Below, one piece after another: positions 31,120 through 46,120 of a stretch of 64,000 bases of DNA. Where the stretch lies: positions 92,820 through 156,819 of the forward strand of contig JBBINR010000002.1 in NCBI GenBank assembly GCA_037443785.1. Reading direction: 5' to 3'. This DNA comes from Ignavibacteriales bacterium. GTDB lineage: Bacteria; Bacteroidota; Ignavibacteria; UBA10030; UBA8401. Below the pieces are notes generated by a model. That model was given only the letters and a program-made list of their open reading frames with translations. It ran no database searches and was not told where the DNA came from. Positions within the stretch are counted from its first letter, which is position 1. Every line of letters starts with the position of its first letter. The translations under genes and the position numbers were made by a program.

Positions 31120-34116
31120 TTATTCGATATTAATTTTATCAATTTCACCCATCAATTTTTCTGTTTCAGTCAATGCAACAATAATCTTTTGATAATGCCG
31201 AATTTCATCAACGCTCAGTTCTCTATCTTTACGATCTTTTAACCATTTTTGCGCGGGCTGATAACCGCCGATATAAAACTCCCATGCTGATTCCGGCACA
31301 TTAGCAAAGTATTGTTTTGCGTTGATGAATACTTTTTTCTGCTCGTATGTGATTTTCTCAACAACATTGTTTCCATCATTAGGATATTTGGTGATGAACT
31401 TTTCTACCGCAGGACTCTCTAACAAATGGATTTGACGAAGTTTACCACCAAGTTCAACTAATTGCCAAAAGATTTTCTTGTCTGTTGGATAGGGAACGCG
31501 CGGGAAATCTATCTTTAAGAATTCTTTGTATTTTTTACGATATGTTGGACTATGCAATACCGCATAGATGTAATCTAAAATATCGATTGGAGCGAATGTA
31601 TTTCTAGTGTTTTCCTTTTCATTTGTAAACTTTAATTCAAGAGTTTTTCCAATCCTTTGGATTAATTCCATATTAAAATTGGGAGTTCTATCGTTTTTAC
31701 TATAAAGATCAGATTGATCAATATTCTCAGGATATGTATAGAGTGGAAAAGCGTTCATAGAATCTGCTGCGGAATCAAGAAGATGTCTATCTGAAATGGT
31801 ATTTGAAATAAATACATAACCTAAACTTAATTGTCTGTTTATGGATGTAATTTGTAAAGCAAAGTTCTTGTGAAGCATATGCTTCATTACATCATATCTC
31901 GCTCTTTGTAGAGTTTTGTTGTCAAAGATAATATATCTCGTATCGAATGGTCTATAAGAATATGGCTGTGGAGTAAAATTAAATTTTTTCCTCAATGCTT
32001 CTGGTGAGAACGAAACCAATTCTGAATCTTTACCAGTTGCTATTCCAACATTAGTAATTTGTATTAACTCGTCCAGTTTGAAACCCTGGGCATATCTACT
32101 TTCAGACTTAAACGTTTTATTAATGAAGTAAAAATTATTTTTATCCGTTTTTACAGTTTCCCAATTAATATTCTTTATTGATTTAGCAAGCATAAATCCG
32201 TATTTATCATCTCGTTTTCCCCACAAATCTAGATGATGAATTTTACCTAATGCACCTTTAGTCTTGCTCGTTTTCACAAAAATATTTATACTAACACCCT
32301 GCATTATATCAAACACATTTTGATCAATCGACCCATCGGGTGCAGTTTCTTTTTTCTTTGCGTTACCATGTAAATCTAAAATATAAATCTTATCAAACGT
32401 TTCTAACAAATGTTTTCGCATTTGGCGGTGTATTAACCCATCAATAAAACTGTTGTTGGAGATGTACGCTAAAATCCCTTCGCCATTCTTATCTATAAAA
32501 TGTTCTCCAAAACGGATAAACTTTATATAATCGTCTGAAAGAGGCTGTATGTTTTTTTCGTTCAGATCTTTTTTATAATCTGCAATTAAATCTTCAATCC
32601 ATTTACTTTTGTTGCTACTGCTAACAGAATATGGAGGATTGCCAAGAACAACCATTACCGGCGTATCCCGTTTTATTTGGTTTGCTTCGTTTGCTTCCGT
32701 ACTTAACCAATTAGCAAAATTAGTTCCAGTTAAAATAATATGATCTTCCAAACTGTTTGTAAGATAAATTTTGAATCGTTGATCGTTGGTTGGTTTGTAA
32801 TCAGTTTCCGCAAAAAGAAGATCGAGCTTTAAATGTGCCATTGCGTAACTTGCCATTAATAGTTCAAAACCGTTCAGGCGCGGAATTAAATGATGTTCCA
32901 CATATTTATTCCACGTACCTTTTTGCCCTTCAAACTTCTTGTAAATTTGTTTTACTATTTCCGCTAAAAATGTTCCTGTTCCCGTAGCAGGATCAAGTAT
33001 CTGAACTTTGTGGACTTCCTGCTCTATTTTCTTCCCTTGCACATCAATGGTGATCTTTGTTTTCGAATTATCTGCTAACCCTTGCGGTAAACCAAATTCT
33101 TTTTTCAGAATGTCATCCACCGCACGAACGATAAAATTGACAACCGATTCGGGTGTGTACCACACGCCGCGCGCTTTGCGCAATTTCGGGTCGTATTCGG
33201 CAAGGAATGTTTCGTAAAAGTGAATAATTGGGTCTTGTGTTTGTGTTGTCTTTCCAAAATTTTTCAACAGTTCCGCAACATCGGTTGCACGAAATAGGTC
33301 GGCTAATTGATCAACAATCCAGTCAATGCGTTTATCTAAATCGTACCCTGCAATGTATTGAAACAGTTTTCGCAAGAAAGGATTTGTTTTTGGTATCAGT
33401 TCAGCTGCTTCCTGCCTGCTGAACGATTCTAAACTTGGGTCGTGCGACCGCGCGGCAAACATTCCATATGCAATGGTTTGTGCGTAAATATCTGCAAACT
33501 CTTTTGCTGTAATGTCGTGAATAAGGATTTGCTGAAATGCTTTTAGTTGTTCTTTCAGAGAGCTGTTTTCCTGATTCTCTTCGTCGCTCTGCAAAGCTTT
33601 TTCAATGATACCGGAAAGCAAACGGGCTTTCCCTGCCATCATTTCTGCAAGTTTTTTGGAGCTCTTGATCGTTTGTCCTTGATATGCGCAGAAATTCTTT
33701 ATCAAGTTTTCAAACTCACCAAAGTTCTTTGTCAGCGCAACTATTTTCTTGTTCTGCACTTCAGCAATCCGAACGGAAAGAACAAACACACCATCAACGT
33801 AGAGATGAAAGTCTAAATAATCAGTAATAATAAGATTATTTAACGAAGCGCGATACCGATCAAATTGCTCTTGGTAATTCTTATCGTTAAGATCGGCTCC
33901 GATATCTTTTGCTTCAATGGATCCGACTGGAATATTTTTTTTGGTAATAATGTAATCCGGTGCTCCACAGGCAACGCGTGAAGGCTCATTAGTTACTAAA
34001 ATCTTTGGGGCTAATGACTCTAAAAGATTCTGCAAATCACCCCGGAAAGTATGCTCTGTGCTAATTCCAGTTTTAAAGCGGGTGTTTATGCTGTTAATGT
34101 ATTGTTGAAGAGTCAT
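31120..34116 (-). CDS. single-chain Type IIG-like restriction-modification enzyme (nuclease, N6-adenine MTase, Type ISP-like specificity domain)
   Basis: N-terminal PDY...IEAK...QFDRY, GVWYTP, ILDPATGTGTF, GNPPY, YRPFD, FPRVP, IGGYQPAQKWLKDRK; no helicase motifs. Confidence 0.88.
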   Translation of the reverse strand: MTLQQYINSINTRFKTGISTEHTFRGDLQNLLESLAPKILVTNEPSRVACGAPDYIITKKNIPVGSIEAKDIGADLNDKNYQEQFDRYRASLNNLIITDYLDFHLYVDGVFVLSVRIAEVQNKKIVALTKNFGEFENLIKNFCAYQGQTIKSSKKLAEMMAGKARLLSGIIEKALQSDEENQENSSLKEQLKAFQQILIHDITAKEFADIYAQTIAYGMFAARSHDPSLESFSRQEAAELIPKTNPFLRKLFQYIAGYDLDKRIDWIVDQLADLFRATDVAELLKNFGKTTQTQDPIIHFYETFLAEYDPKLRKARGVWYTPESVVNFIVRAVDDILKKEFGLPQGLADNSKTKITIDVQGKKIEQEVHKVQILDPATGTGTFLAEIVKQIYKKFEGQKGTWNKYVEHHLIPRLNGFELLMASYAMAHLKLDLLFAETDYKPTNDQRFKIYLTNSLEDHIILTGTNFANWLSTEANEANQIKRDTPVMVVLGNPPYSVSSSNKSKWIEDLIADYKKDLNEKNIQPLSDDYIKFIRFGEHFIDKNGEGILAYISNNSFIDGLIHRQMRKHLLETFDKIYILDLHGNAKKKETAPDGSIDQNVFDIMQGVSINIFVKTSKTKGALGKIHHLDLWGKRDDKYGFMLAKSIKNINWETVKTDKNNFYFINKTFKSESRYAQGFKLDELIQITNVGIATGKDSELVSFSPEALRKKFNFTPQPYSYRPFDTRYIIFDNKTLQRARYDVMKHMLHKNFALQITSINRQLSLGYVFISNTISDRHLLDSAADSMNAFPLYTYPENIDQSDLYSKNDRTPNFNMELIQRIGKTLELKFTNEKENTRNTFAPIDILDYIYAVLHSPTYRKKYKEFLKIDFPRVPYPTDKKIFWQLVELGGKLRQIHLLESPAVEKFITKYPNDGNNVVEKITYEQKKVFINAKQYFANVPESAWEFYIGGYQPAQKWLKDRKDRELSVDEIRHYQKIIVALTETEKLMGEIDKINIE

Positions 34117-34166
34117 CGTTATGTTTCACTTTCAAGATACAATTACAAAAAAATCACTGCCAATTT

Positions 34167-34476
34167 TTCTCCCCCTAATAGGAGGAGAATACAAGACGGG
34201 AGCGTTCTCTGCGGACCAACGCTCTAAACATAGCATTTTTGCATTGTTCTTTCAACCATTTGCCTGTAACAAAAACGCCCACGCACGCCATTGCACGTGC
34301 GCAGGCTTTCACCCTCCGCTACCCAACGCCTAACACATCACAAACTTCTCTCCCCCCTTCACGTTTTTTGTGAGATTAAGGGGGGAGAGACAGAGAGGGG
34401 GGTCAATCACTTTACATCTTGCATTGAAAAATATTCTTTCTCCCACTGTAAAGGGGGGAGAATACAAGAGGGGGTT
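34167..34476. repeat. three degenerate CTCCCC...GGGGAG palindromic repeats
   Basis: copies at about 34167, 34346 and 34438; two share GGAGAATACAAGAnGGG. Confidence 0.65.
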
Positions 34477-34485
34477 CGAGTTAAT

Positions 34486-34731
34486 TTACCCCGGCGATTG
34501 CGTCGGATCTTTTTTCTTTGGATATGTCCGTTCTTCCTGTATCGTGCCATCCAGTTTTTTAATCTTTACTGACCCGCCGTCACTCCCCAGCGCTTTCTTT
34601 AGCACACCACCTTGTGTTGCTTTTTCTTTTGTATCAAAGGTCTTTTTTATCGTATCACTCTTATCACGTTTTAAATCCCATTGATCATGCTTTTTATCAT
34701 GACTCAATGTATACTTTTTGAGATTACCCAT
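34486..34731 (-). CDS. DUF2188 family protein
   Basis: W.LK...FDTKEKA...SVKIKKLDGTIQEERTYP...DP..SPG. Confidence 0.85.
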   Translation of the reverse strand: MGNLKKYTLSHDKKHDQWDLKRDKSDTIKKTFDTKEKATQGGVLKKALGSDGGSVKIKKLDGTIQEERTYPKKKDPTQSPG

Positions 34732-34771
34732 AACAGTACTCTTTTCTTGTTTTAGTTTAGTAAATACACTC

Positions 34772-34816
34772 ACCTTGCGAAGGTTTTGAAATCGTTTTGC
34801 GGAACCTTCGCAAGGT
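34772..34816. repeat. REP-like inverted repeat
   Basis: ACCTTGCGAAGGTT ... AACCTTCGCAAGGT, perfect 14-bp arms. Confidence 0.75.
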
Positions 34817-34831
34817 TTCCCAACACCGCTT

Positions 34832-34866
34832 TTGTTAACTGTTAATTGTTCATTGTTAATTGTTTC
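34832..34866. repeat. heptamer tandem repeat (TTGTTAA-type x5)
   Basis: ttgttaa ctgttaa ttgttca ttgttaa ttgtttc. Confidence 0.7.
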
Positions 34867-35542
34867 ATTGCCCCGCAGGTTTCACCGGCTCTTCTTTCTT
34901 CACCGCCGCACTCCGTCCCGCCGGAATCGGCTCAAACTCAACCAGCACATCTTTCCGCCCCGCAAAAATCACCTTCGCAGTGTTCCTGATTTTTTTCATC
35001 ACCCCTCGCAATCCGTTCATCGCTTCATCCCGCGCTGTGGTTGCATTCTTTTGTACCTTCTTGGCGTTCTCCTGTTTCACATCCACATCCGAAAGCGCTT
35101 GTGTAATGGTATCGAACTCCGTCAGATCGGCATCTTTAAATCCGCTCTTGGCAAGTTCCGTTTTGTTCGTTGCGGCAGTGCTTTTCATATAACTCAGCTC
35201 CGTTACCATTGCTTTCACGGTAGTCAGAGAATTTCCGCCGACATGAAATTCCTTCATCCGCTGTCTATCGTTTTCACCAAACGCCGCTTTCGCCGCGTTC
35301 TGCGTTTTACGGATATGTGCAAGCCCGCGCTCCATCCCTTTATTTTGCTGCGCCGTCAGATCGGCAACAGTCTGCATTGCCGTTTTTTGCATCGTATCTT
35401 TTGTCGTTGCATCGGCAATCGTAGTTGTTAATGATTGAATATCCTCCGCACTGATACCGTCGCCGGATGCCCCCGCCGCATATTTGGTTGACGTGCCGAG
35501 AAGAACATTTCCCTCTTGCACGGTCGCATCGAGTTTTTCCAT
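34865..35542 (-). CDS. hypothetical all-alpha protein with internal two-fold duplication
   Basis: SD AGGAGG; both halves share G....D...D..Q..A...T...M...K..N.AK..F...EF. Confidence 0.8.
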   Translation of the reverse strand: MEKLDATVQEGNVLLGTSTKYAAGASGDGISAEDIQSLTTTIADATTKDTMQKTAMQTVADLTAQQNKGMERGLAHIRKTQNAAKAAFGENDRQRMKEFHVGGNSLTTVKAMVTELSYMKSTAATNKTELAKSGFKDADLTEFDTITQALSDVDVKQENAKKVQKNATTARDEAMNGLRGVMKKIRNTAKVIFAGRKDVLVEFEPIPAGRSAAVKKEEPVKPAGQ

Positions 35543-36206
35543 GAAAAACCTCCTGGTATGTTAGTGGATAAAAATGCCCCGGACCTTTTCCGAGTGCATT
35601 AAAAATATTAGTCATGGTGAGCAAGTGATGCGTTGTATACATCACGAGTCGAACCATCCAAAAAATAATCGGCATGTTGAGCGTAGCGAAGCATCCATTT
35701 TTTTCTAATGAAATTCGATCTATGAGCACCAGCCCGAAATCGTCGTCGATGCGCACTATGGGAAGATTCAATCAGGAGCGAATTAATCACGTCACCGGCG
35801 TGATTCCGGCTTTGTGCGCCCGCGATTGAATCGCGCGTTACGATTTCGAAAAGATTTCTTTGTTCCTTTCTTTCTCGGAAAGAAAGGAACATCACTTTTT
35901 CAATCACCCAGATTTCTCTCATTTCTCTTTTTCCTTCTGACGTTGTTCATCTCTCACTTTTGCTAATAGCTAATCGTCAACACACAACCGTTGCTTTAAA
36001 AAAATAGATTTCTTCAAGACGTGTAGTTTCTGGATTCCGTCTCACAATCCGACGAAATGACAAAACCTCTCTAACTTTCGCTAAGAGCAAATAGCCAATA
36101 TCTGACAGTCGCTTTTATATTGTATTATGAGGAATAAAACTACCGTCCAACCCCGCAGAACCAGCCCCAATTCGCCGAAAAACCATACAACCGCCGATTT
36201 TAGTGG

Positions 36207-36340
36207 AAATTCGCCAAAATATACCCCCAGAAACCCCAAACAACCCTTCAGAAATGCAAAACAACTCTCCGGAAACACCAAACAACCCTTCCGAAACGCC
36301 AAACATCTCCCCAGAAATATCAAATAATTCATTCAGAAAT
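36207..36340. repeat. degenerate 21-nt tandem repeat (about 6 units)
   Basis: aaaccccaaacaacccttcag / aaatgcaaaacaactctccgg / aaacaccaaacaacccttccg / aaacgccaaacatctccccag at 36231-36314 plus flanking partial units. Confidence 0.8.
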
Positions 36341-36342
36341 AT

Positions 36343-36684
36343 TTAAAACACAAATTCACCGACGAATTTGCCGTCGATAAACAACTCTACAGTTTGTTCG
36401 TGGGTTTGCGGGTTGAGAAACATCGATGCTTTTACCGCTTTTCCGTGGTATTCGGCATTGTATTCCAACTTTTTGTCGCCGCCGCATTTTCCGGCAATAA
36501 TAAGATCGTCGTCGATACTGATTTTAATTTCTTTGCTTAACCATGTCCTGTCCTGCCACACGCGTACTTTTACTTCGCTTCCTGCTTCGGTTGAAAAGTT
36601 CCAGAGAACAGAATGGGATGTGATACATGCCGAAAAAGTAATGGCAAGGAACACGGCAACAACAACGATGGAATGTGTTTTCAT
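36343..36684 (-). CDS. small hypothetical lipoprotein
   Basis: GAGG SD, signal peptide with lipobox FSAC, beta-rich mature part. Confidence 0.7.
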   Translation of the reverse strand: MKTHSIVVVAVFLAITFSACITSHSVLWNFSTEAGSEVKVRVWQDRTWLSKEIKISIDDDLIIAGKCGGDKKLEYNAEYHGKAVKASMFLNPQTHEQTVELFIDGKFVGEFVF

Positions 36685-36893
36685 GTTTTTCCTCAGTGTT
36701 GAAGTATTGAATGAGAATGTTATTGCTGACTCTGTCAGCCAAAAAGAGGGAAGTGTGAAAAGGCGCCGGAGTCAATTTTTATTGTGTAGAATGTATTGAT
36801 AAAAAATCTTTTCGTCAATAGAAATTCTTTTATTTAAAGAGTCATTGCTCTGAATCAAAAAGCGTAGAGCGAAGGGAGAGAAACATTTCGCGA

Positions 36894-37724
36894 TTAGTGT
36901 TTGCGTACGGCGAACCAAGGGGAGCCGCGGTAGGAATCCGTTACGATCCATGCGGCGGATGTTAACACCCAAGAACTGACGAACTCGGTCCAATCGGAAG
37001 CATCCGGGTGTGACGTAATAATTGGTACCCACACCAGCAGTGTGAACAAGCCGAGCTGCAGAGCGGAGAGTGCGGCCGCAAGCCGTGCATAGACACCGAT
37101 GATTATCGCTGCGCCTGCCGCGATGAAAGCACAACCGGTGATGATCGCCCATGCAAAATGCCACGGCATCCAGTCGGGCACCATGGAGATGGTTCTTTCG
37201 AGATATGTAAAATGCGCTATGCCGAAAGGGATCAAGCCCAAACCGTAGAGCACCCTTGCAATGCGCACGCCTTTGTCACCCACAGCGAAACTGATATGCT
37301 GACGATCCCAGTCGCGAGCGAACCAGGTATAGAGAATCCACGCGGCCGCTGTCATCACTGCGGTGTCACCGCTTGTCCACCATGCACCGGTGGTTGCAGG
37401 ATAGCAGACGATGAGGGTCACTCTAAAGAGGAGCAGCCACACCAAGAGAGAGCCGAGCAGTACGCGCGATGCTATGGCCGATGTGCGCTGCCACAGTATA
37501 CCGATACCGGATACCAAACAAATAACGGCGCACAGATACGCCAGCGCCAGACGCGCGGGAAGACTCTCCGGCACCCCAGACCATGTCGGGGTGAAATCGC
37601 CTTGCATTAAACCCAAGATTCCTACGGCAGCCATCGTCACCGCAAAAAATGCGTGACCCACGCTTACGATACCGATAGCTTGTGTTTTTACACTGCTCTC
37701 GTTCATTCGATCCATCTGCTCCAT
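36894..37724 (-). CDS. DoxX-like membrane protein (two repeats)
   Basis: 8 TM, FGIAHF...MVPDWMP...TG.AFIAAG, duplicated halves; GC-richer than neighbours. Confidence 0.78.
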
Positions 37725-37833
37725 GCTCTCACTCCTGCTTTTGTTAAAAGGTTCACTTAAAGAAAAATTATTTTCGTATCGTCTCTTGTGTATTGAGCAT
37801 TCACCATTTTCCGTTCACGCGAGCGGGTGGCAT

Positions 37834-37880
37834 GTCGACTTGTCCCGAAGGGACACCTTCGGGGAGCGACCGGTTAGGGC
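37834..37880 (-). mobile_element. truncated attC-like site, copy 1
   Basis: 20 nt after a stop codon: GCCCTAAC-CGGTCGCTC-[hairpin]-AAGTCGAC; 37/44 identical to copy 2. Confidence 0.5.
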
Positions 37881-37900
37881 GTATTGTAATTTTTAAAATA

Positions 37901-38332
37901 TTAGAATATGAACGGAATTATCTTTTTGGTTTTGCGTGAATACTCCGCATAGTCAGGGAAGTGTGTACGCAGAATCTCCTCTTCACTCATGATACGGATT
38001 GAAACTCCGCTTGTAACGATCAAGCCAATCATCACCGTCGCGGTGGATAGATGTCCGAAAATACTTGCCCATATTAATAGTAATGCCGCAGTGTACATTG
38101 GATGTCGAACAAACGCATACGGTCCGGTCGAGAGGAGCGGGCCTTCTTTCGGCTCTGCATCGACACTGAATTGTCCTGCTTGAAAACTTCGCCGCGCCCA
38201 AATACTTATCGCAACCGCCAGTACCTGTGCTGTAATTATGAACGGGGAAGGTGAAAGCAAGTTTCCAGAGGCCAATAAATATACTATCGCTAAAATCAGG
38301 ATAGGAAGAGCAAATTTGGCAATTCGTTTCAT
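37901..38332 (-). CDS. isoprenylcysteine carboxylmethyltransferase (ICMT/PEMT) family protein
   Basis: TGPYAFVRHPMY, EEEIL...Y.EY..KT..IIPF. Confidence 0.9.
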   Translation of the reverse strand: MKRIAKFALPILILAIVYLLASGNLLSPSPFIITAQVLAVAISIWARRSFQAGQFSVDAEPKEGPLLSTGPYAFVRHPMYTAALLLIWASIFGHLSTATVMIGLIVTSGVSIRIMSEEEILRTHFPDYAEYSRKTKKIIPFIF

Positions 38333-38362
38333 TAATGAAAACCTCCTTTGATATATTCAGCG

Positions 38363-38455
38363 GCCTGACGGATCGGAATTCATCCGCTGAACAGCGTGGC
38401 GGATGCACCGTCGGCTTGTCCCGAAGGGATCCCTTCGGGGAGTGACTGATTAAGA
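38363..38455 (-). mobile_element. degenerate attC-like site, copy 2
   Basis: TCTTAAT...CTC-[CCCGAAGGGATCCCTTCGGGAC]-AAGCCGAC...GATCC-GTCAGGC between a stop codon and the next gene's SD. Confidence 0.5.
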
Positions 38456-38459
38456 AGCA

Positions 38460-39047
38460 TTAAATACCGACTGAAAAATAGGCCCCAAGCATATTATAAT
38501 TTTCCACTACAACATAACGAAGATGAATACCGACAGATCCTGTTTCCGTTCTCGTTGTTACTCCAATACCCGGAGCAAAAAAGAATTTTGATACTGTTCC
38601 CTGTGCAAAATGAGGAGTATATTCCGGCGGTTCTTCATATGTTAATTCACCCAAACTACATCCCAATTCAATCTTAAACATTGAAAGATCAATCCTCTGT
38701 CCAATTTCAGGGCCCCAAAACACTGAAGGACCATGACCTTTGACGGAAATACTTCTTGAAAAACCCATATGGTAGAATATTGATACACCTGCAAAGGTCT
38801 TCGTCGAAAATTCAAAATTTCCCCTGACACCAAATCCCAATCCTCTATCATAATTAAAACCATTCCCAATCAACATCTGCGCATTCCAAATGCCAATTAC
38901 GTGACTATCCTTGCCAACACGTTTTTGAACGTTGCCTCCTTCATTGGTATTTGATACTGTATCACCCTCAATTGGAATTGGTTTAGACAGTACCTGTGAT
39001 GAATTGAACATCACTAGTAAAAAGAATAAAACTATTTTTGTCTTCAT
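38460..39047 (-). CDS. hypothetical outer-membrane beta-barrel protein (small, OmpA-TM-like)
   Basis: signal peptide MKTKIVLFF, Gly/aromatic strands, C-terminal YFSVGI. Confidence 0.65.
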   Translation of the reverse strand: MKTKIVLFFLLVMFNSSQVLSKPIPIEGDTVSNTNEGGNVQKRVGKDSHVIGIWNAQMLIGNGFNYDRGLGFGVRGNFEFSTKTFAGVSIFYHMGFSRSISVKGHGPSVFWGPEIGQRIDLSMFKIELGCSLGELTYEEPPEYTPHFAQGTVSKFFFAPGIGVTTRTETGSVGIHLRYVVVENYNMLGAYFSVGI

Positions 39048-39209
39048 TTGGTACGTGATCGAATTTTTATTCACTGTGAAGCACGCAGTCGGTTCTGCCG
39101 GCCCTTGAGATGGAGCGATGAATGATTGCCGGAATCAATATTTTATTGTGTGAATGTAGAGAGAATAAATGTGTTCGTCAACAAGAAAAGTAAGGAATAA
39201 GAAGAAAAG

Positions 39210-39340
39210 GATGAGGGATGAATTATGAAGGATGAAGCAAAACATGGATGCTTCGACTCGTCCATAGAGCGGACTCGCTCAGCATGACACCAAGGGGAAA
39301 AATTGTTCATGGATCCCCGCTTATAGCATGCGGGGATGAC
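39210..39340. repeat. heptamer repeat plus two REP-like half elements
   Basis: gatgagg gatgaat tatgaag gatgaag; GATGCTTCGACTC...GCTCAGCATGAC (inverse relative at 35671-35696); GATCCCCGC...GCGGGGATGAC. Confidence 0.6.
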
Positions 39341-39389
39341 AGAGGGAAAGCACATGGGCTACGCTCTTCACAAAGTTTAAAATGAATTC

Positions 39390-39418
39390 TTGAATTGCCG
39401 CAACACTTTTGGTATTAT
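39390..39418 (+). promoter_or_regulatory. sigma70-type promoter of the ECF sigma gene
   Basis: TTGAAT-17 nt-TATTAT. Confidence 0.6.
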
Positions 39419-39453
39419 TCGGGAGTTCATTTTGTCATTTAATTCGGCAGGAC

Positions 39454-40029
39454 TTGTCCTCTTCAGTTCGTCATAGTGAATTAACCACGTGGGTTCGTGC
39501 GTATACTAAAGATATGCTCTCGTGGGCAACCAAGCGCACCTCGAATCAACATATTGCAGAAGATCTTGTCCAAGAAACATTTCTTATTGCCGCCGAAAAG
39601 TATTCAAGTTTTCGCCGCGAGAGTGAGCCAAAGACCTGGCTGTTTGGGATACTCAATCTGAAGATTGCTGAATTTTACCGTTCCAAAAAACGGACTCACG
39701 AATCACATGTTGATATCGATGAATTTTCTGATCTTTTTTTCTCCGAGGATGGAAAATGGAAACAGAGTGCCGCACCAACAGTATGGGAAGATGTTGATAC
39801 TCATCTGTTTGATGATCAGTTGTTCGTTGAAATATTTGAACAATGTTTAGGAAGTTTACCAAACACCTGGAACCAAAGTTTGACGGCAAAATTTTTCAGC
39901 GAAAAAACAACCGAGCAAATCTGTCAGGAATTGGGTATATCAATCACTAATTATTGGCAGCTTATCCATCGAGCAAAGCTTAAAATGCGTTCATGTTTAG
40001 AACAACAGTGGTTCCGAAAAAATAGGTAA
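39454..40029 (+). CDS. ECF sigma-70 family sigma factor
   Basis: AEDLVQETF, KTWLFGIL, ICQELGIS.TNYWQLIHRAK; start re-called to TTG 39454 after AGGA. Confidence 0.92.
   Translation: MSSSVRHSELTTWVRAYTKDMLSWATKRTSNQHIAEDLVQETFLIAAEKYSSFRRESEPKTWLFGILNLKIAEFYRSKKRTHESHVDIDEFSDLFFSEDGKWKQSAAPTVWEDVDTHLFDDQLFVEIFEQCLGSLPNTWNQSLTAKFFSEKTTEQICQELGISITNYWQLIHRAKLKMRSCLEQQWFRKNR
39921..39951 (+). promoter_or_regulatory. candidate ECF promoter inside the sigma gene
   Basis: CTGTCAGGAATT-11 nt-TCACTAAT, same two blocks as 40300-40329. Confidence 0.55.
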
Positions 40030-40034
40030 CCAAT

Positions 40035-40292
40035 ATGACTGTAATGATGCTTTCATGTTTTAAGGCAACAGAATTGATCGAAAAACGTCAACTGACACCA
40101 CTTGGCGTCGTTGATCTCTTGAGATTGCATATGCATACCATGATGTGCGATGCATGCCGAATGTATGAGAAACAGAGTAAAATCATTACTACCGCACTTC
40201 ATTCAGAACTTCATATGAATAGATCGGCTGTTCATGTAAGCGATGAATCTGCCAATACACTTATTGAAAAGATCCTTACGGAAGAAAAATAA
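40035..40292 (+). CDS. zf-HC2 (ZAS) soluble anti-sigma factor
   Basis: LSCFKATELI...HTMMCDAC (HxxxCxxC), directly after the sigma gene, no TM. Confidence 0.85.
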   Translation: MTVMMLSCFKATELIEKRQLTPLGVVDLLRLHMHTMMCDACRMYEKQSKIITTALHSELHMNRSAVHVSDESANTLIEKILTEEK

Positions 40293-40299
40293 AAATCGG

Positions 40300-40329
40300 C
40301 TGTCAGGAATTCTTCTTCGTGTCACTAAT
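40300..40329 (+). promoter_or_regulatory. candidate ECF-dependent promoter of the downstream genes
   Basis: intergenic CTGTCAGGAATT-10 nt-TCACTAAT, 42 nt before ATG 40372. Confidence 0.6.
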
Positions 40330-40371
40330 CGTATGTAATCAATAATTAATCATTAGAAAGGATTATCTACG

Positions 40372-40800
40372 ATGAAACACTCTTTCCGAAGTTCCATTCT
40401 CGCCGGCATTGCGGCAACATTTGTTATGACTTTAGTTACCATGGCTGCACCAATGATGGGATTCCCGCCAATGAATCCTGCGGCAATGCTTTCCGAAACG
40501 ATGCATGCACCTATTATTGCGGGTTGGCTTGCGCATTTTATGATCGGGATTCTTTTCGCGGTAAGTTATACTCTGTTTATTGCCGATCGTTTAAAGGTTT
40601 CACCTGTAATCATAAAAGGATCACTGTTCGGATTCGGTGTATTCCTCTTTGCACAAATTATGATGGCGATGATGAATGCCGTCATGGGTGGAATGCCGTC
40701 ACCTGAAGGAAGCATGGCATTATTGCTCGTTGGAAGTATCATGGGACATGTCATCTATGGAATTGTCGTTGCCCTTATTGCAAAACCTTCACAAAAATAA
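40372..40800 (+). CDS. four-TM Met-rich membrane protein (DUF6789/DUF2938-like)
   Basis: AGIAATFVMT, GWLAHFMIG and GHVIYG conserved-His pattern. Confidence 0.7.
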   Translation: MKHSFRSSILAGIAATFVMTLVTMAAPMMGFPPMNPAAMLSETMHAPIIAGWLAHFMIGILFAVSYTLFIADRLKVSPVIIKGSLFGFGVFLFAQIMMAMMNAVMGGMPSPEGSMALLLVGSIMGHVIYGIVVALIAKPSQK

Positions 40801-40813
40801 TTGAAAGAACTGC

Positions 40814-41086
40814 ATGCCTAAAATAACAATGTATTCAACGCCGTGGTGCGGTGATTGCCGAAATGCAAAACGATTCTTAAAAAATTCCGGAATAGAATAT
40901 TCCGAAATTGATATAGACCAAAATGACAGCGCAGCACAACAAGTCATTGATTGGTCGGGAGGACGACGAGTGATTCCAACGTTTCACATTACTGCGTGCG
41001 ATCAAAGTACATCGTTGATACTCCATAATCCGAAACTCAATGATTTAGATAAAATTCTTCGTGACCTTATCACGAAAACCGCCTGA
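40814..41086 (+). CDS. glutaredoxin/NrdH (mycoredoxin-like) protein
   Basis: MYSTPWCGDC, G.RVIPT, NP motif. Confidence 0.88.
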   Translation: MPKITMYSTPWCGDCRNAKRFLKNSGIEYSEIDIDQNDSAAQQVIDWSGGRRVIPTFHITACDQSTSLILHNPKLNDLDKILRDLITKTA

Positions 41087-41263
41087 CATCGATGGATTCT
41101 CCGAAGGAGTCCTTTTGAACCGACGACAGTTCCGCTTTGTGAATCCCGGTGTGCGGAATTTAGAAGCGGGATCGTTGGTCAGCGACCTTGTGAGGAATGA
41201 CAAATGTACGCAGGGGAAGAAATTTCTTTTGCGTCAAATGAATCATTTTGTATATTATAGACA

Positions 41264-41320
41264 ATGAAATCGGTATTTCTATATATGATGTGTTGTCTAA
41301 AGGTACATTCGCATTCGTGA
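41264..41320 (+). CDS. putative attenuator leader peptide MKSVFLYMMCCLKVHSHS
   Basis: 18-codon ORF with ATG ATG TGT TGT at 41285-41296, between promoter TTGCGT...TATATT (41229-41256) and a terminator upstream of metZ. Confidence 0.7.
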   Translation: MKSVFLYMMCCLKVHSHS

Positions 41321-41346
41321 AAGAGACGCATCAATTTGCTTTTTTG

Positions 41347-41382
41347 AAAAGTCTTTCACACTGAAAGACTTTTTTGCTTTTT
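41347..41382 (+). terminator. attenuator terminator upstream of metZ
   Basis: AAAAGTCTTTCA-cac-TGAAAGACTTTT then TTGCTTTTT; its 5' arm can alternatively pair with GTGAAAGA 41317-41324. Confidence 0.8.
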
Positions 41383-41396
41383 AGGAGGAGCCAGCC

Positions 41397-42569
41397 ATGA
41401 AAAAACATTTTGAAACCAATGCAGTCCGTACGCAATCCAAGCGTTCATCAAACCGCGAACATTCGGTTCCGCTCTATCTTACCTCGAGTTTTTTGTTTGA
41501 TAATGCAGAGCAGGGGCGGGCGCTGTTTGCGGACGAAATCGAAGGAAATATTTATTCGCGCTTTTCCAATCCGAACACGTCGGAGTTTATCGAGAAAATG
41601 GCCGCGATGGAACACGGGGAAGACGGCTTTGCTTTTGCGACAGGAATGGCGGCGATCTTTGTTGGATTCGGCGCGCTGCTCCAATCGGGAGATCATGTGC
41701 TCGCCTGCCGTTCGCTCTTCGGGTCGTCGCATCAACTGCTGACAAAAGTGTTGTCCAAATGGGGAATCACACATACGTACGTTGATGCTGCCCATCCTGA
41801 AACATGGGAAGGGGCGATTCAAAAAAACACGAAATTAATTTTCATCGAAACGCCTTCCAATCCCGGATTGGAATTGATCGATCTTGAATGGCTCGGCACA
41901 CTGAAAAAGAAACACAACGTGCTGTTGAGCGTGGATAATTGTTTTGCGACGCCGTATCTGCAGACGCCGATCGATTTCGGCGCCGATCTTGTGATTCACT
42001 CAGCCACAAAATTCATCGACGGGCAGGGAAGAGTGCTCGGCGGCGTGATTGTCGGGAACAAAGCATTGATCAAAGAGATCCGATTCTTCTCGCGCCATAC
42101 CGGACCGGCAATGTCGCCGTTCAATGCGTGGCTTCTTTCAAAAAGCTTAGAGACCCTTGCGGTGCGAATGGATCGGCATTGCGCAAATGCACTCGCGCTT
42201 GCGCAGCATTTAGAAAAGCATTCCGAAATCGAAAGCGTGAAGTATCCGTTTCTTCCGTCGCATCCGCAGTATGACCTTGCCAAGAAACAAATGAAACAAG
42301 GGGGCGGTGTTGTGACGTTTGTTGTTAAAGGAGGATACGAACGGGCGAAAAAATTTATCGATGCCATTGAAATGCTCTCCAGCACGGCAAATCTTGGCGA
42401 TGCGCGAACCACGGTCACGCATCCGGCATCGACCACGCATTCAAAATTAACCGACGAAGAACGGGCGAAGGTTGCCATTGGACCGGGATTGATCCGTATT
42501 TCCGCTGGACTTGAACATATCGACGATATTGTTGCCGATGTTGACCAGGCATTGAAGAAATCGAAATAA
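41397..42569 (+). CDS. metZ: O-succinylhomoserine sulfhydrylase (Cys/Met PLP-dependent enzyme)
   Basis: EHSVPLYLTSSF, YSRFSNP, ETPSNP, HSATKFIDGQGRVLGG, NLGD...THPASTTH. Confidence 0.88.
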   Translation: MKKHFETNAVRTQSKRSSNREHSVPLYLTSSFLFDNAEQGRALFADEIEGNIYSRFSNPNTSEFIEKMAAMEHGEDGFAFATGMAAIFVGFGALLQSGDHVLACRSLFGSSHQLLTKVLSKWGITHTYVDAAHPETWEGAIQKNTKLIFIETPSNPGLELIDLEWLGTLKKKHNVLLSVDNCFATPYLQTPIDFGADLVIHSATKFIDGQGRVLGGVIVGNKALIKEIRFFSRHTGPAMSPFNAWLLSKSLETLAVRMDRHCANALALAQHLEKHSEIESVKYPFLPSHPQYDLAKKQMKQGGGVVTFVVKGGYERAKKFIDAIEMLSSTANLGDARTTVTHPASTTHSKLTDEERAKVAIGPGLIRISAGLEHIDDIVADVDQALKKSK

Positions 42570-42607
42570 ATTTTTGCGAATAATAATTAACAATAAAGGA
42601 AAAATCT

Positions 42608-43078
42608 ATGAACTGGTTTTTTGAATCGTGGAATTGGTATATCGCCGGTCCATTAATTGGATTATTCGTACCGGCGCTGTTAATCGTAACAAACAAAATG
42701 CTGGGCATTTCTTCGGCATTCGAACATCTCTGTACGCTTGTTCTCCCAAAAGAGAAGGGTTCTATTTTCAATTTCAATATTGTTGAAAACAGCTGGAAGA
42801 CACTGTTCGTTGTCGGTATTGCGCTTGGGGCCTACGTTGCGTCGCATTTTCTTTCGTCATCGCCGGTGCATTTTCTTCCGGAACAGTATCACACCACAGC
42901 GGGTTACGTTAAATTATTTATCGGCGGAATTTTGGTCGGATTCGGAACACGATACGCGAACGGATGCACATCGGGCCATGCAATATTTGGTCTCTCTATT
43001 TTGCAATCGTCGAGCTTGAAAGCAACGATTTCGTTTTTTATCGGCGGATTGATTTATACATTTTTCGCATCATTATAA
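42608..43078 (+). CDS. YeeE/YedE thiosulfate transporter family protein (first half)
   Basis: WYIAGPLIG, LGISS, GGILVGFGTRYANGCTSGHAI. Confidence 0.9.
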   Translation: MNWFFESWNWYIAGPLIGLFVPALLIVTNKMLGISSAFEHLCTLVLPKEKGSIFNFNIVENSWKTLFVVGIALGAYVASHFLSSSPVHFLPEQYHTTAGYVKLFIGGILVGFGTRYANGCTSGHAIFGLSILQSSSLKATISFFIGGLIYTFFASL

Positions 43079-43141
43079 TAGTACAAGCATCTCACACAAC
43101 GTCGCAAAAGTTCAGAGAAAAATACTTTGAGGAAAAGGGAA

Positions 43142-43552
43142 ATGAAAAATTTTTTCTATATCGTGTTTGGAATACTTTTCGGAATTATTCTTACCAAATC
43201 TGAAGTGATCAGCTGGTTCAGAATCCAGAATATGTTCCAATTTAAAGAGCTTCACATGTATCTGATCATCGGTTCTGCCGTTGCGGTCGGAATCATTTCA
43301 ATGCAACTGATTCAGCGGCTGAATGTAAAGAGCTTGAATGGTGAAGAAATTCATGTAAAAGGTAAACAATTTCATAAAGGGTTTATCATCGGCGGAATAA
43401 TTTTTGGCATCGGCTGGGCGATCACCGGCGCCTGTCCGGGTCCGATCTTTGCGCAAATTGGCGCGGGAGAATTTCCGGCGCTATTTACGCTTGCCGGTGC
43501 ACTGCTCGGCGCATTTTTATATCATTCGTTCAAATCAAAATTGCCGCACTAA
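43142..43552 (+). CDS. YeeE/YedE family protein (second half)
   Basis: KSEVISWFRI..MF.F...HMY, GGIIFGIGWAITGACPGP. Confidence 0.9.
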   Translation: MKNFFYIVFGILFGIILTKSEVISWFRIQNMFQFKELHMYLIIGSAVAVGIISMQLIQRLNVKSLNGEEIHVKGKQFHKGFIIGGIIFGIGWAITGACPGPIFAQIGAGEFPALFTLAGALLGAFLYHSFKSKLPH

Positions 43553-43720
43553 ACAGCATTGGCAAAAAAGCTTCACGTGTGTTTGCATCATTTTCACCAT
43601 CGGGCGAATTGTTGTTTCACCCGATTTTTCTAATTATCTTTACTCAACAAAAACAACAAAACGGCGATAAACCGTTTTTTTTATCGTTGTACAGCATTCC
43701 GATAGAAAGTACAAGCCGTA

Positions 43721-46120
43721 ATGGCAGATGACCAAATCATAAAACCAGAGTTTTCAGTAGAACCAATAGACAAAATTCCTCAAACGCTCCCGGTGCTTCC
43801 GCTGCGCGATGTCGTTATTTTCCCATATATGATTTTTCCGGTACTTGTCGGCAGAGAATCGTCGCTGCGCGCTGCAAATTTTGCATTGGATAACAGCAAA
43901 TATATTTTTCTTGTCTCACAGAAAGACCCCTCGGTAGAAGAACCAGGGAAAGATGATATCTATGTTGAAGGAACCGTTGCGAAGATTGTTCAAATTTTAA
44001 AACTCCCGAATAACTTGATGAAAATCTTGGTGGATGGAGTGGTGCAGGGAACGATTGCGGAGTTTGTCGACAACGAAAAATTTCTTCAGGCAAAAATTAC
44101 CATCGCGGCACACACCGCCGATAATTCCACGGAAATGGATGCGATTGTTCGGCATGCGTCGTCGTTATTTTCTGAATATGTCCGCGCCAATAGAAATATC
44201 CCTCCCGAAGTATTGGCGGCATTTGAAAATATCAAAGATGTTCAACGGCGCCTCTATTATATCGCCGCGAATATATTACAAACGGTTGAGATCAAACAAA
44301 AAATCCTAAAACTCACGGTTTTAAAGGAACAGTATTTAGAAATCATCCGTGTGCTGAATTCAGAAATTAACGTTTTGAAAATCGAGCGGGAGATCGATAC
44401 GAAGGTCCATGAAAATATCCAGCGGTCGCAGCGAAAGTATTTTATCCAGGAACAGATCAAAATTTTACAGGATGAACTCGGTGAAGAAGAATCGACTCCT
44501 GAATTGGCAAAGTTGAAAGATGATATTGCGAAAGCCGGGATGTCGAAAGACGTACACGCCAAAGCGATGGAAGAGTTTACAAAGCTGAAAAAAACTCCGT
44601 CGATGTCTCCGGAATTCGGCGTGATTCGAAATTATCTCGATTGGCTCGTCAGCTTGCCGTGGAAAAAGAAAACGAAAGACGACCTCGACATTGAGCATGT
44701 AAAAAAGATTTTAGATGATGATCATTATGGATTAGAGAAACCGAAAGAACGCATTCTTGAACACATTGCCGTCTTGAATCTTGTGAAAGAAATGAAAGGG
44801 CAGATTTTGTGTTTGGTTGGTCCTCCGGGAGTTGGAAAAACTTCGCTGGCAAAATCGATTGCCCGTGCATTAAACAGAAAATTCGTGCGTATGTCGCTCG
44901 GCGGCGTTCGGGATGAAGCGGAAATTCGCGGCCATCGGCGAACGTATATCGGTTCGATGCCGGGAAAAATAATTCAGTCAATGAAGCGCGCCGCTGTGGT
45001 GAACCCTGTGATTCTGATGGATGAGATCGACAAGATGAGCATGGATTTCCGCGGCGATCCGGCGAGTGCATTGCTTGAAGTGCTTGATCCGCAGCAGAAT
45101 TCTGCATTCAACGATCATTATCTTGAAGTGGATTATGATCTTTCGAAAGTGATGTTTATTACCACGGCGAATGTACGCTACGCAATTCCAATGCCGCTGC
45201 TTGATCGGATGGAAGTGATCGAGCTTTCCAGCTATCTTGATTTTGAAAAACGGGAAATTGCAAAACGGCATATCATTCCGCGGTTGATCAAAGATCACGG
45301 GCTGACGAACGATGATGTTCAGCTTCCTGATGATTCAATACAAAAAATCATTACTGAATACACGCGCGAATCCGGAGTGCGAAATTTAGAACGAGAGATT
45401 GCTTCCGTTTGCCGGAAGTCAGCCAAAGAAACTGTTCTGGCACGAAGTAAAAACAATCATGCAAAGAAAAAGGGGAAGAAGAAACACCCTGTTCTTATTG
45501 TCGATGAAAAGAAAGTCGAAGAATATCTTGGCGTCCCGAAATTTCGCAGCAGAGCTGCCGACAAAGAAGCGCAGGTTGGATCGGTCACCGGGTTAGCGTG
45601 GACGAGCGTTGGCGGAGATATCCTTCATGTCGATGTTACATTGATGAAAGGTCCCGGCCGTTTGACATTGACGGGGCAGCTCGGCGATGTGATGAAAGAA
45701 TCAGCGCAAGCGTCGCTCAGTTACATCCGTTCGAATGCGAAGAAATTGAAATTGAATCCTGAATTTTTTGACAAGAAAGAAATTCATATCCATTTGCCGG
45801 AAGGTGCAATACCGAAAGACGGACCCTCCGCAGGAATTACGATGACGATGGCGATGATCTCGGCAATCAGTGGAAAGCCGGCGAGGGCAGATGTTGCAAT
45901 GACCGGAGAAATAACTTTGCGCGGCGAAGTGCTGCCGATCGGCGGATTGAATGAAAAACTTCTTGCCGCAAAACGCGCCGGGATAAAAACTGTCTTGATC
46001 CCCAAAGAGAATAAAAAAGATCTTACGGAAATTCAGGAAAGCGTCAAAGAAGGATTGAAGATTGTTCCCGTTGAAAAGATCGAAGAAGCGCTGCCTTATG
46101 TGTTTGGAAAGAAAAAATAA
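43721..46120 (+). CDS. lon: ATP-dependent protease La
   Basis: [40 protein letters not shown]. Confidence 0.97.

Follow-up and report, generated by a model that had tools for sequence, protein, structure and literature searches.

The region 4.2 helix-turn-helix codons of an ECF293-like sigma factor gene as the probable site of the factor's own promoter

The sigma/anti-sigma locus and its promoter motifs

The sequence analysed here is a 64,000-nt window from an Ignavibacteriales bacterium (GCA_037443785.1, contig JBBINR010000002.1, positions 92,820 to 156,819). It contains, on the + strand, a gene for an ECF sigma factor with sigma2 and sigma4 domains (39454–40029), which is ECF293-like and shares 34% identity with Neisseria gonorrhoeae Ecf (E 2e-26). 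The ECF293 group comprises the former ECF13, ECF101 and ECF117 and includes Neisseria sigmaE/Ecf with MseR (PMC2893595, PMC7826278). The TTG at 39454 is the likely start codon rather than 39409, since it matches the -468 offset found in a paralog of the same genome and a start at 39409 would overlap the upstream -10 box. Apart from a sub-threshold match to PhyR_sigma2, PF04542 and PF08281 were the only domains detected, giving the architecture of an ECF sigma factor, and TIGR02937 was matched above its cut-off. The best NCBIfam match was TIGR02943 (Sig70_famx1), membership of which was rejected at 132.7 bits against a curated cut-off of 162.2. The three cysteines described for ECF293 are present in the sigma4 half as C128, C154 and C178, all invariant or nearly so, and the linker between the two Pfam domains is about 45 residues long, about 8 more than in SigW; an extended linker is a further ECF293 character, for which the passages describing the group give no length threshold. 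The family profile, used as a proxy for the ECF group HMMs, scored N. gonorrhoeae Ecf at 161.9 bits.

The next gene on the + strand (40035–40292) encodes a putatively soluble zinc-finger anti-sigma (ZAS) protein of 85 aa with Cys8 and a His34-x3-Cys38-x2-Cys41 motif, its match to the NF052368 profile (E 3e-12, 46.1 bits) lying just below the cut-off of 50. The Cys-to-His spacing is the same as in Neisseria MseR, and a predicted zinc-finger anti-sigma of this form (Cys8 plus HxxxCxxC) at the +1 position is what the ECF293 group would lead one to expect. It is followed on the same strand by a DUF6789 membrane protein found by profile search (40372–40800), the likely first target gene, and by a glutaredoxin/mycoredoxin-like protein with a CGDC motif (40814–41086), which starts 13 nt past the previous stop and is a likely co-transcribed target. 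Further downstream, a terminator-like hairpin (41346–41374) lies directly 5' of a metZ-like sulfhydrylase gene (41397–42569), with two genes for YeeE/YedE sulphur transport after it.

Two copies of a two-block motif are present on the + strand, as the preliminary description of this DNA had claimed: CTGTCAGGAATT-n11-TCACTAAT at 39921–39951, in frame inside the sigma coding sequence, and CTGTCAGGAATT-n10-TCACTAAT at 40300–40329, beginning 8 nt past the anti-sigma stop. These were the only two matches to the pattern in the window, compared with none in 100 dinucleotide shuffles, and the looser pattern TGTCAG-N15-18-CACTAA occurs three times in the 3.57-Mb genome. Local duplication as the origin of the two copies was ruled out because the spacers are unrelated and of different length. 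The internal copy reads TGT CAG GAA TTG GGT ATA TCA ATC ACT AAT (CQELGISITN). Its -35 element, TGTCAGG (39922–39928), coincides with the Cys-Gln-Glu codons and its -10 element, TCACTAAT (39944–39951), with the Ile-Thr-Asn codons; when the protein is aligned with SigW, the former fall in helix one of the region 4.2 helix-turn-helix and the latter open the recognition helix. With the offset of the Neisseria consensus, in which +1 lies six nt past the -10 element (PMC2893595), the internal promoter is predicted to start at about 39956–39957. The distance from the end of the internal copy to the anti-sigma ATG (40035) is 84 nt, in agreement with the earlier estimate of about 85. The intergenic copy, TGTCAGG-14-TCACTAAT (40301–40329), has a predicted start at about 40333–40335, and a copy occupies the same place after the anti-sigma gene in close relatives.

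The sigma gene itself was proposed at the outset to be transcribed from a housekeeping-type promoter. A sigma70-like motif predicted on the + strand at 39390–39418 (TTGAAT-17-TATTAT, with an extended TG) agrees with that proposal, as does the outcome of a search for a copy of the ECF motif upstream of the window sigma gene, which found none, but the site is not significant alone, the sigma70-like scan returning 8 sites against 6.1 expected. Similar sites lie upstream of the sigma gene in 7 of the 19 close relatives shown. Among 110 loci with an intact internal copy, the sigma70-like motif was found upstream of sigma in 19 (5.7 expected) and TAnnTTTG, the Bacteroidetes promoter consensus, in 37 (8.2 expected); neither motif was enriched in the 13 loci in which an ECF-type promoter lies upstream of sigma (0 and 1 of 13, respectively). 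The region upstream of the sigma promoter (39195–39345) contains short REP-like repeats, with about 12 genome matches for one 40-nt stretch and three for another, and an Rfam search of positions 34000–46000, which covers these repeats, returned nothing, riboswitches included.

Conservation and codon usage of the internal motif

The analysis was extended to related loci, of which 160 were collected, 155 remained after five duplicate loci were dropped, and eight were added later (163). Most are from the phylum of the window or from metagenomes, the latter being the best 80 of 388, along with seven proteobacterial plasmid records hand-picked from 68. A motif matrix initialised with a Neisseria-like consensus and built solely from 86 sites lying outside called genes converged to TGT[AC]AGG-N15-CG[AT]C[TCA]A[AT], with 78 of these non-coding sites sharing the spacing of the in-frame copy. 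In the 8.5-kb gonococcal locus the top match of the matrix, at 19.5 bits (next 8.3), lies 63 nt upstream of the operon's first gene, in agreement with the published Neisseria sigmaE promoter consensus GTMAGBWTT-12/13-CGTCTAAH (PMC2893595), a check that is only partly independent, the matrix having been seeded from this same consensus. The gonococcal gene, with its operon and upstream site, scores -11.3 at the internal position and so has no internal copy.

An in-frame internal copy of at least 12 bits was found in 115 of the 163 related genes (about 70%). Of 155 genes, 122 have the best match of their coding sequence at the internal position, and in 92 the copy outscored synonymous recodings (2000 recodings, p<0.05); six of the seven proteobacterial plasmid members fall below 12 bits there. 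In one clade of 15 loci the internal -35 is TGTAATG (Cys-Asn), the -10 is a perfect CGTCTAA and the flanks contain almost no external site; this clade may read a shifted -35. In another locus (L045) the sigma frame stops 48 nt past the Cys codon, inside region 4, from a truncated gene or an assembly error.

The preliminary description had named free synonymous variation in homologues as evidence against its reading; the opposite was observed. With amino-acid-specific expectations in 155 genes, Z values were 8.6 for Cys, 12.0 for Gln/Lys, 12.9 for the residue before Thr/Ser and 6.5 for Thr/Ser, compared with at most 2.8 for five spacer-side codons and 4.0 for the largest nearby non-motif position. 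The skew expected at the named codons was thus found for Cys, Gln/Lys and Thr/Ser but not for the third base of Asn (Z 0.3), which is free because it lies outside the motif. In a scan of the whole gene (605 column tests) the G of the codon before Thr/Ser ranked first (Z 12.8) and the G of Gln/Lys second (12.4), with the T of Thr/Ser fourth (7.7) and TGT for Cys sixth (5.4); a non-motif Gln codon ranked third (Z 7.9), and these Z values are overdispersed, with an SD of 1.6–1.9 rather than 1. The motif outliers persisted among 103 genes of <65% identity (Z 10.0, 9.5, 6.2 and 4.5). Specifically, 53 of the 57 genes with Lys at the motif position spell it AAG, against 26% elsewhere in the same genes; the motif Cys is TGT in 121 of 150, against 46–54% at two other Cys columns; and of the 118 NCN codons found before Thr/Ser, 84 have G in third position, whether they encode Pro, Ala, Ser or Thr.

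Codon-context bias was ruled out as the cause of this skew by controls. The N-terminal Cys-Lys of the anti-sigma itself is unbiased (TGT 32 of 64, AAG 14 of 60), of 1983 Lys codons followed by a codon that begins with G only 559 are AAG, and in the genome of the window ACT AAT is the rarest spelling of Thr-Asn (107 of 2583 pairs) and TGTCAG accounts for 25 of 131 Cys-Gln pairs, both spellings being used by both paralogs. Across the family, these DNA bases are under selection beyond the protein sequence. The protein differs with the site as well, the second residue being Lys, Gln or Asn in 113 of 115 intact genes and mostly Ser, Thr, Ala, Leu or Arg where the site is lost.

The copies in the window are weaker against the family matrix than those of the paralog. 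The internal copy scores 14.0 bits and the external copy, whose spacer is 1 nt short, 9.4 bits, whereas the paralogous sigma gene of the genome (48% identical, contig C8) has one copy inside the gene and one after its anti-sigma gene that score 23.9 and 23.7 bits, the two best matrix matches genome-wide. The internal copy of the window ranks 18th among the 57 genome matches listed. The -10 of both window copies starts with TC, in place of the CG, CT or CA of the family, and these first two bases vary within the clade of the window, so that either the copies are weak or the factor reading them has a shifted specificity. That the site is real in the family and the window copy is decaying, or owes its match to residue conservation and codon context, is very unlikely, even though this copy does not stand out from synonymous recoding (p=0.154) and the Cys and Asn residues are conserved even in genes without the site. 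Arguing against it are the genome's rarest Thr-Asn spelling at this position and an Ile codon that is unusual in the family (2 of 155 genes) and yields the same TC as the window's own external copy. In the TGTCAGG clade, likewise, the -10 starts of a locus's own internal and external copies match in 29 cases against 19.6 for shuffled pairs (n=20, kin not independent). The rare Ile codon and the shared TC suggest, as far as sequence goes, a local variant of specificity, which is a separate matter from proof of activity.

The paralogous sigma/ZAS pair (C8:22500–25300) heads two exported proteins bearing CxxCH motifs, a secreted peptide with repeated Cys-Lys-Gly-Lys-Asp units and a gene apparently of the DUF692/MNIO type; a second gene of this appearance is found on contig C104 of the same genome.

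Agreement between copies and alternative promoter arrangements

Covariation of the internal copy with the downstream intergenic motif was another expectation of the preliminary description. Among loci with an intact internal copy and an external site the two copies agree at -35 position 4 (C/A, Gln/Lys) in 39 of 42 and at -10 position 3 (A/T, Thr/Ser) in 39 of 41, and own pairs match at 12.29 of 14 bases, compared with 11.17 for shuffled pairs; the external sites of nine loci, the window included, were added by a relaxed rule in this test. The agreement fits co-evolution but falls short of demonstrating it, because the tree has only two changes of the external state.

A promoter was found upstream of the sigma gene in 13 loci and in the gap just past the sigma stop in five. 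None of these 18 loci keeps the internal copy, compared with 107 of 134 others with enough upstream sequence, and the second residue is Lys or Gln in only two of the 18, both with a non-promoter codon. Twelve of the 13 upstream-promoter loci belong to one clade, so that independent events are few: the architecture changes seven times on the tree, with two independent pairs on supported branches and no significance. Over this test and the one of co-variation, such pairs number one or two, none significant. In the remaining 27 of the 134 loci the copy is lost and no substitute promoter was seen. Five loci of the autoregulated clade have back-to-back divergent promoter copies upstream of the sigma gene. 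Elsewhere, a promoter-like copy, or an apparent remnant, falls in the N-terminal Cys-Lys-Glu codons of the anti-sigma itself, at +125 from the Cys codon in L125 and at +133 in L094; the L094 site, which reads like an anti-sigma remnant in a locus whose internal copy is also lost, was excluded by hand from the gap class and kept in matrix training.

These arrangements bear on what the internal site does. It is highly improbable that it acts mainly by interference, with parked sigma-RNA polymerase blocking elongation from the housekeeping promoter and lowering sigma mRNA: a position inside the sigma gene would permit such blocking, but the replacement sites past the sigma stop in five loci could not block sigma transcription, and both boxes are kept with the exact spacing of productive promoters. 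A ZAS gene lies downstream in 91 of 99 loci with a copy. Of the eight without a ZAS call, at least three have a divergent anti-sigma-like gene and four, all of a Saprospiraceae group, keep the copy with a DUF547 protein next and no adjacent ZAS gene (Pfam on two of them, L003 and L005). Together with the finding that three of the five post-stop promoters precede non-ZAS effector genes, this indicates that the site is a predicted promoter for the next gene, usually the anti-sigma. The same loci could be taken to mean that the internal site is a real sigma-dependent promoter serving whatever lies downstream by read-through, the extra anti-sigma being incidental rather than the selected effect, and a scan found no terminator-like site between the window anti-sigma and the next gene. 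This explanation is unlikely, given that a second promoter directly follows the anti-sigma gene in the window, in the paralog and in 24 of 85 intact loci, so that the targets do not need the internal one, and that in two loci (L086 and L139) a substitute promoter lies in a widened gap directly 5' of the ZAS gene.

A broader interpretation is slightly favoured, namely that the promoter in ECF293-like genes dictates part of the protein. The -35 and -10 bases would fix the Gln/Lys of the first helix together with the two residues at which the recognition helix begins, and therefore any shift in specificity would have to be rewritten into the sigma factor's own DNA-binding domain; lineages would switch between internal, post-stop and upstream wirings, flipping the loop from negative to mixed feedback.

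Proposed circuit and relation to known systems

Probably, to judge from motif, position and codon usage, the codons of the region 4.2 helix-turn-helix hold what is likely the sigma factor's own promoter, which would drive an anti-sigma transcript without the sigma gene. Under the proposed scheme, the housekeeping promoter at 39390–39418, with no sigma-dependent site upstream, would give a sigma/anti-sigma mRNA, and the ZAS protein, by homology to MseR and RsrA, would hold the sigma factor until a thiol or metal signal. Freed sigma would then fire both the intergenic promoter at 40301 (for DUF6789 and glutaredoxin) and the internal promoter at 39922, and the internal transcript would add anti-sigma only, giving negative feedback and a fast shut-off. 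DUF6789 homologues follow the same promoter in six related loci, and a regulon search of the genome with the family matrix gave no convincing target beyond the two sigma loci. The signal is likely to be thiol or metal stress, given the ZAS motif and the glutaredoxin and, beside relatives, genes that are MsrA-like and DUF692-like. The site is likely to act as a built-in brake that raises the factor's inhibitor; this negative-feedback reading, put forward in the preliminary description, gains support from the codon skew and from known precedents.

The closest precedent is Corynebacterium glutamicum sigH-rshA, where an ECF sigma factor is expressed from housekeeping promoters and PrshA is located within the sigma gene, in its 3' part (Busche et al. 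2012, PMC3489674). Northern blot and primer extension established this promoter, which has starts 62 and 66 nt upstream of rshA and yields an mRNA for the ZAS anti-sigma only, for which a fast shut-down was proposed; it was presented as a difference from Streptomyces coelicolor and Mycobacterium tuberculosis (PMC3489674). The logic is the same as that proposed here, but PrshA has a different sigma factor and a GGAA/GTT-type motif, and whereas the copy described here is kept in most sampled Bacteroidota ECF293-like members, the account of PrshA in that paper comes with no codon analysis. In Escherichia coli rpoE-rseABC, the sigmaE-dependent rseA P3 within the rpoE coding region drives the anti-sigma (PMC8595263), and in a model of this system the gain is negative when only rseA P3 is sigma-dependent (PMC12633294). 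P3 differs from the present case in starting 228 nt before rseA, in that rpoE also autoregulates upstream, and in that the anti-sigma is a membrane protein. As with PrshA and rseA P3, a putative cognate motif lies inside the window sigma gene and points at the anti-sigma gene.

Neisseria sigmaE/Ecf resembles the window system in its homologous sigma factor (34%), soluble ZAS at +1, promoter type and thiol/redox-type targets, but drives its whole operon from an upstream site. Promoter motifs of ECF293 are called not conserved and gonococcal Ecf apparently not autoregulated in the supplement of the ECF classification (PMC7826278), and the oxidants tested on meningococcal sigmaE elicited no response (PMC2893595). 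A literature search, with most subscription journals outside its scope, found no paper describing an intragenic promoter for ECF293/ECF13 or a constraint on the codons concerned, and passages of PMC7776599 do not mention such a promoter.

The circuit logic is therefore already known from C. glutamicum PrshA and E. coli rseA P3; what appears new relative to the print searched is a dual coding that extends across the family and appears to constrain residues of the helix-turn-helix. The analysis provides a predicted promoter for Bacteroidota ECF293-like sigma factors, a group whose motif was listed as not conserved, and the dual coding can be tested by four synonymous base changes. If confirmed, this would be a clear-cut example of a DNA-binding domain with dual coding, in which natural variants wire the same switch three ways, and it would mean that ECF sigma factors classed as non-autoregulated can autoregulate negatively via a promoter that is missed by upstream-only motif searches.
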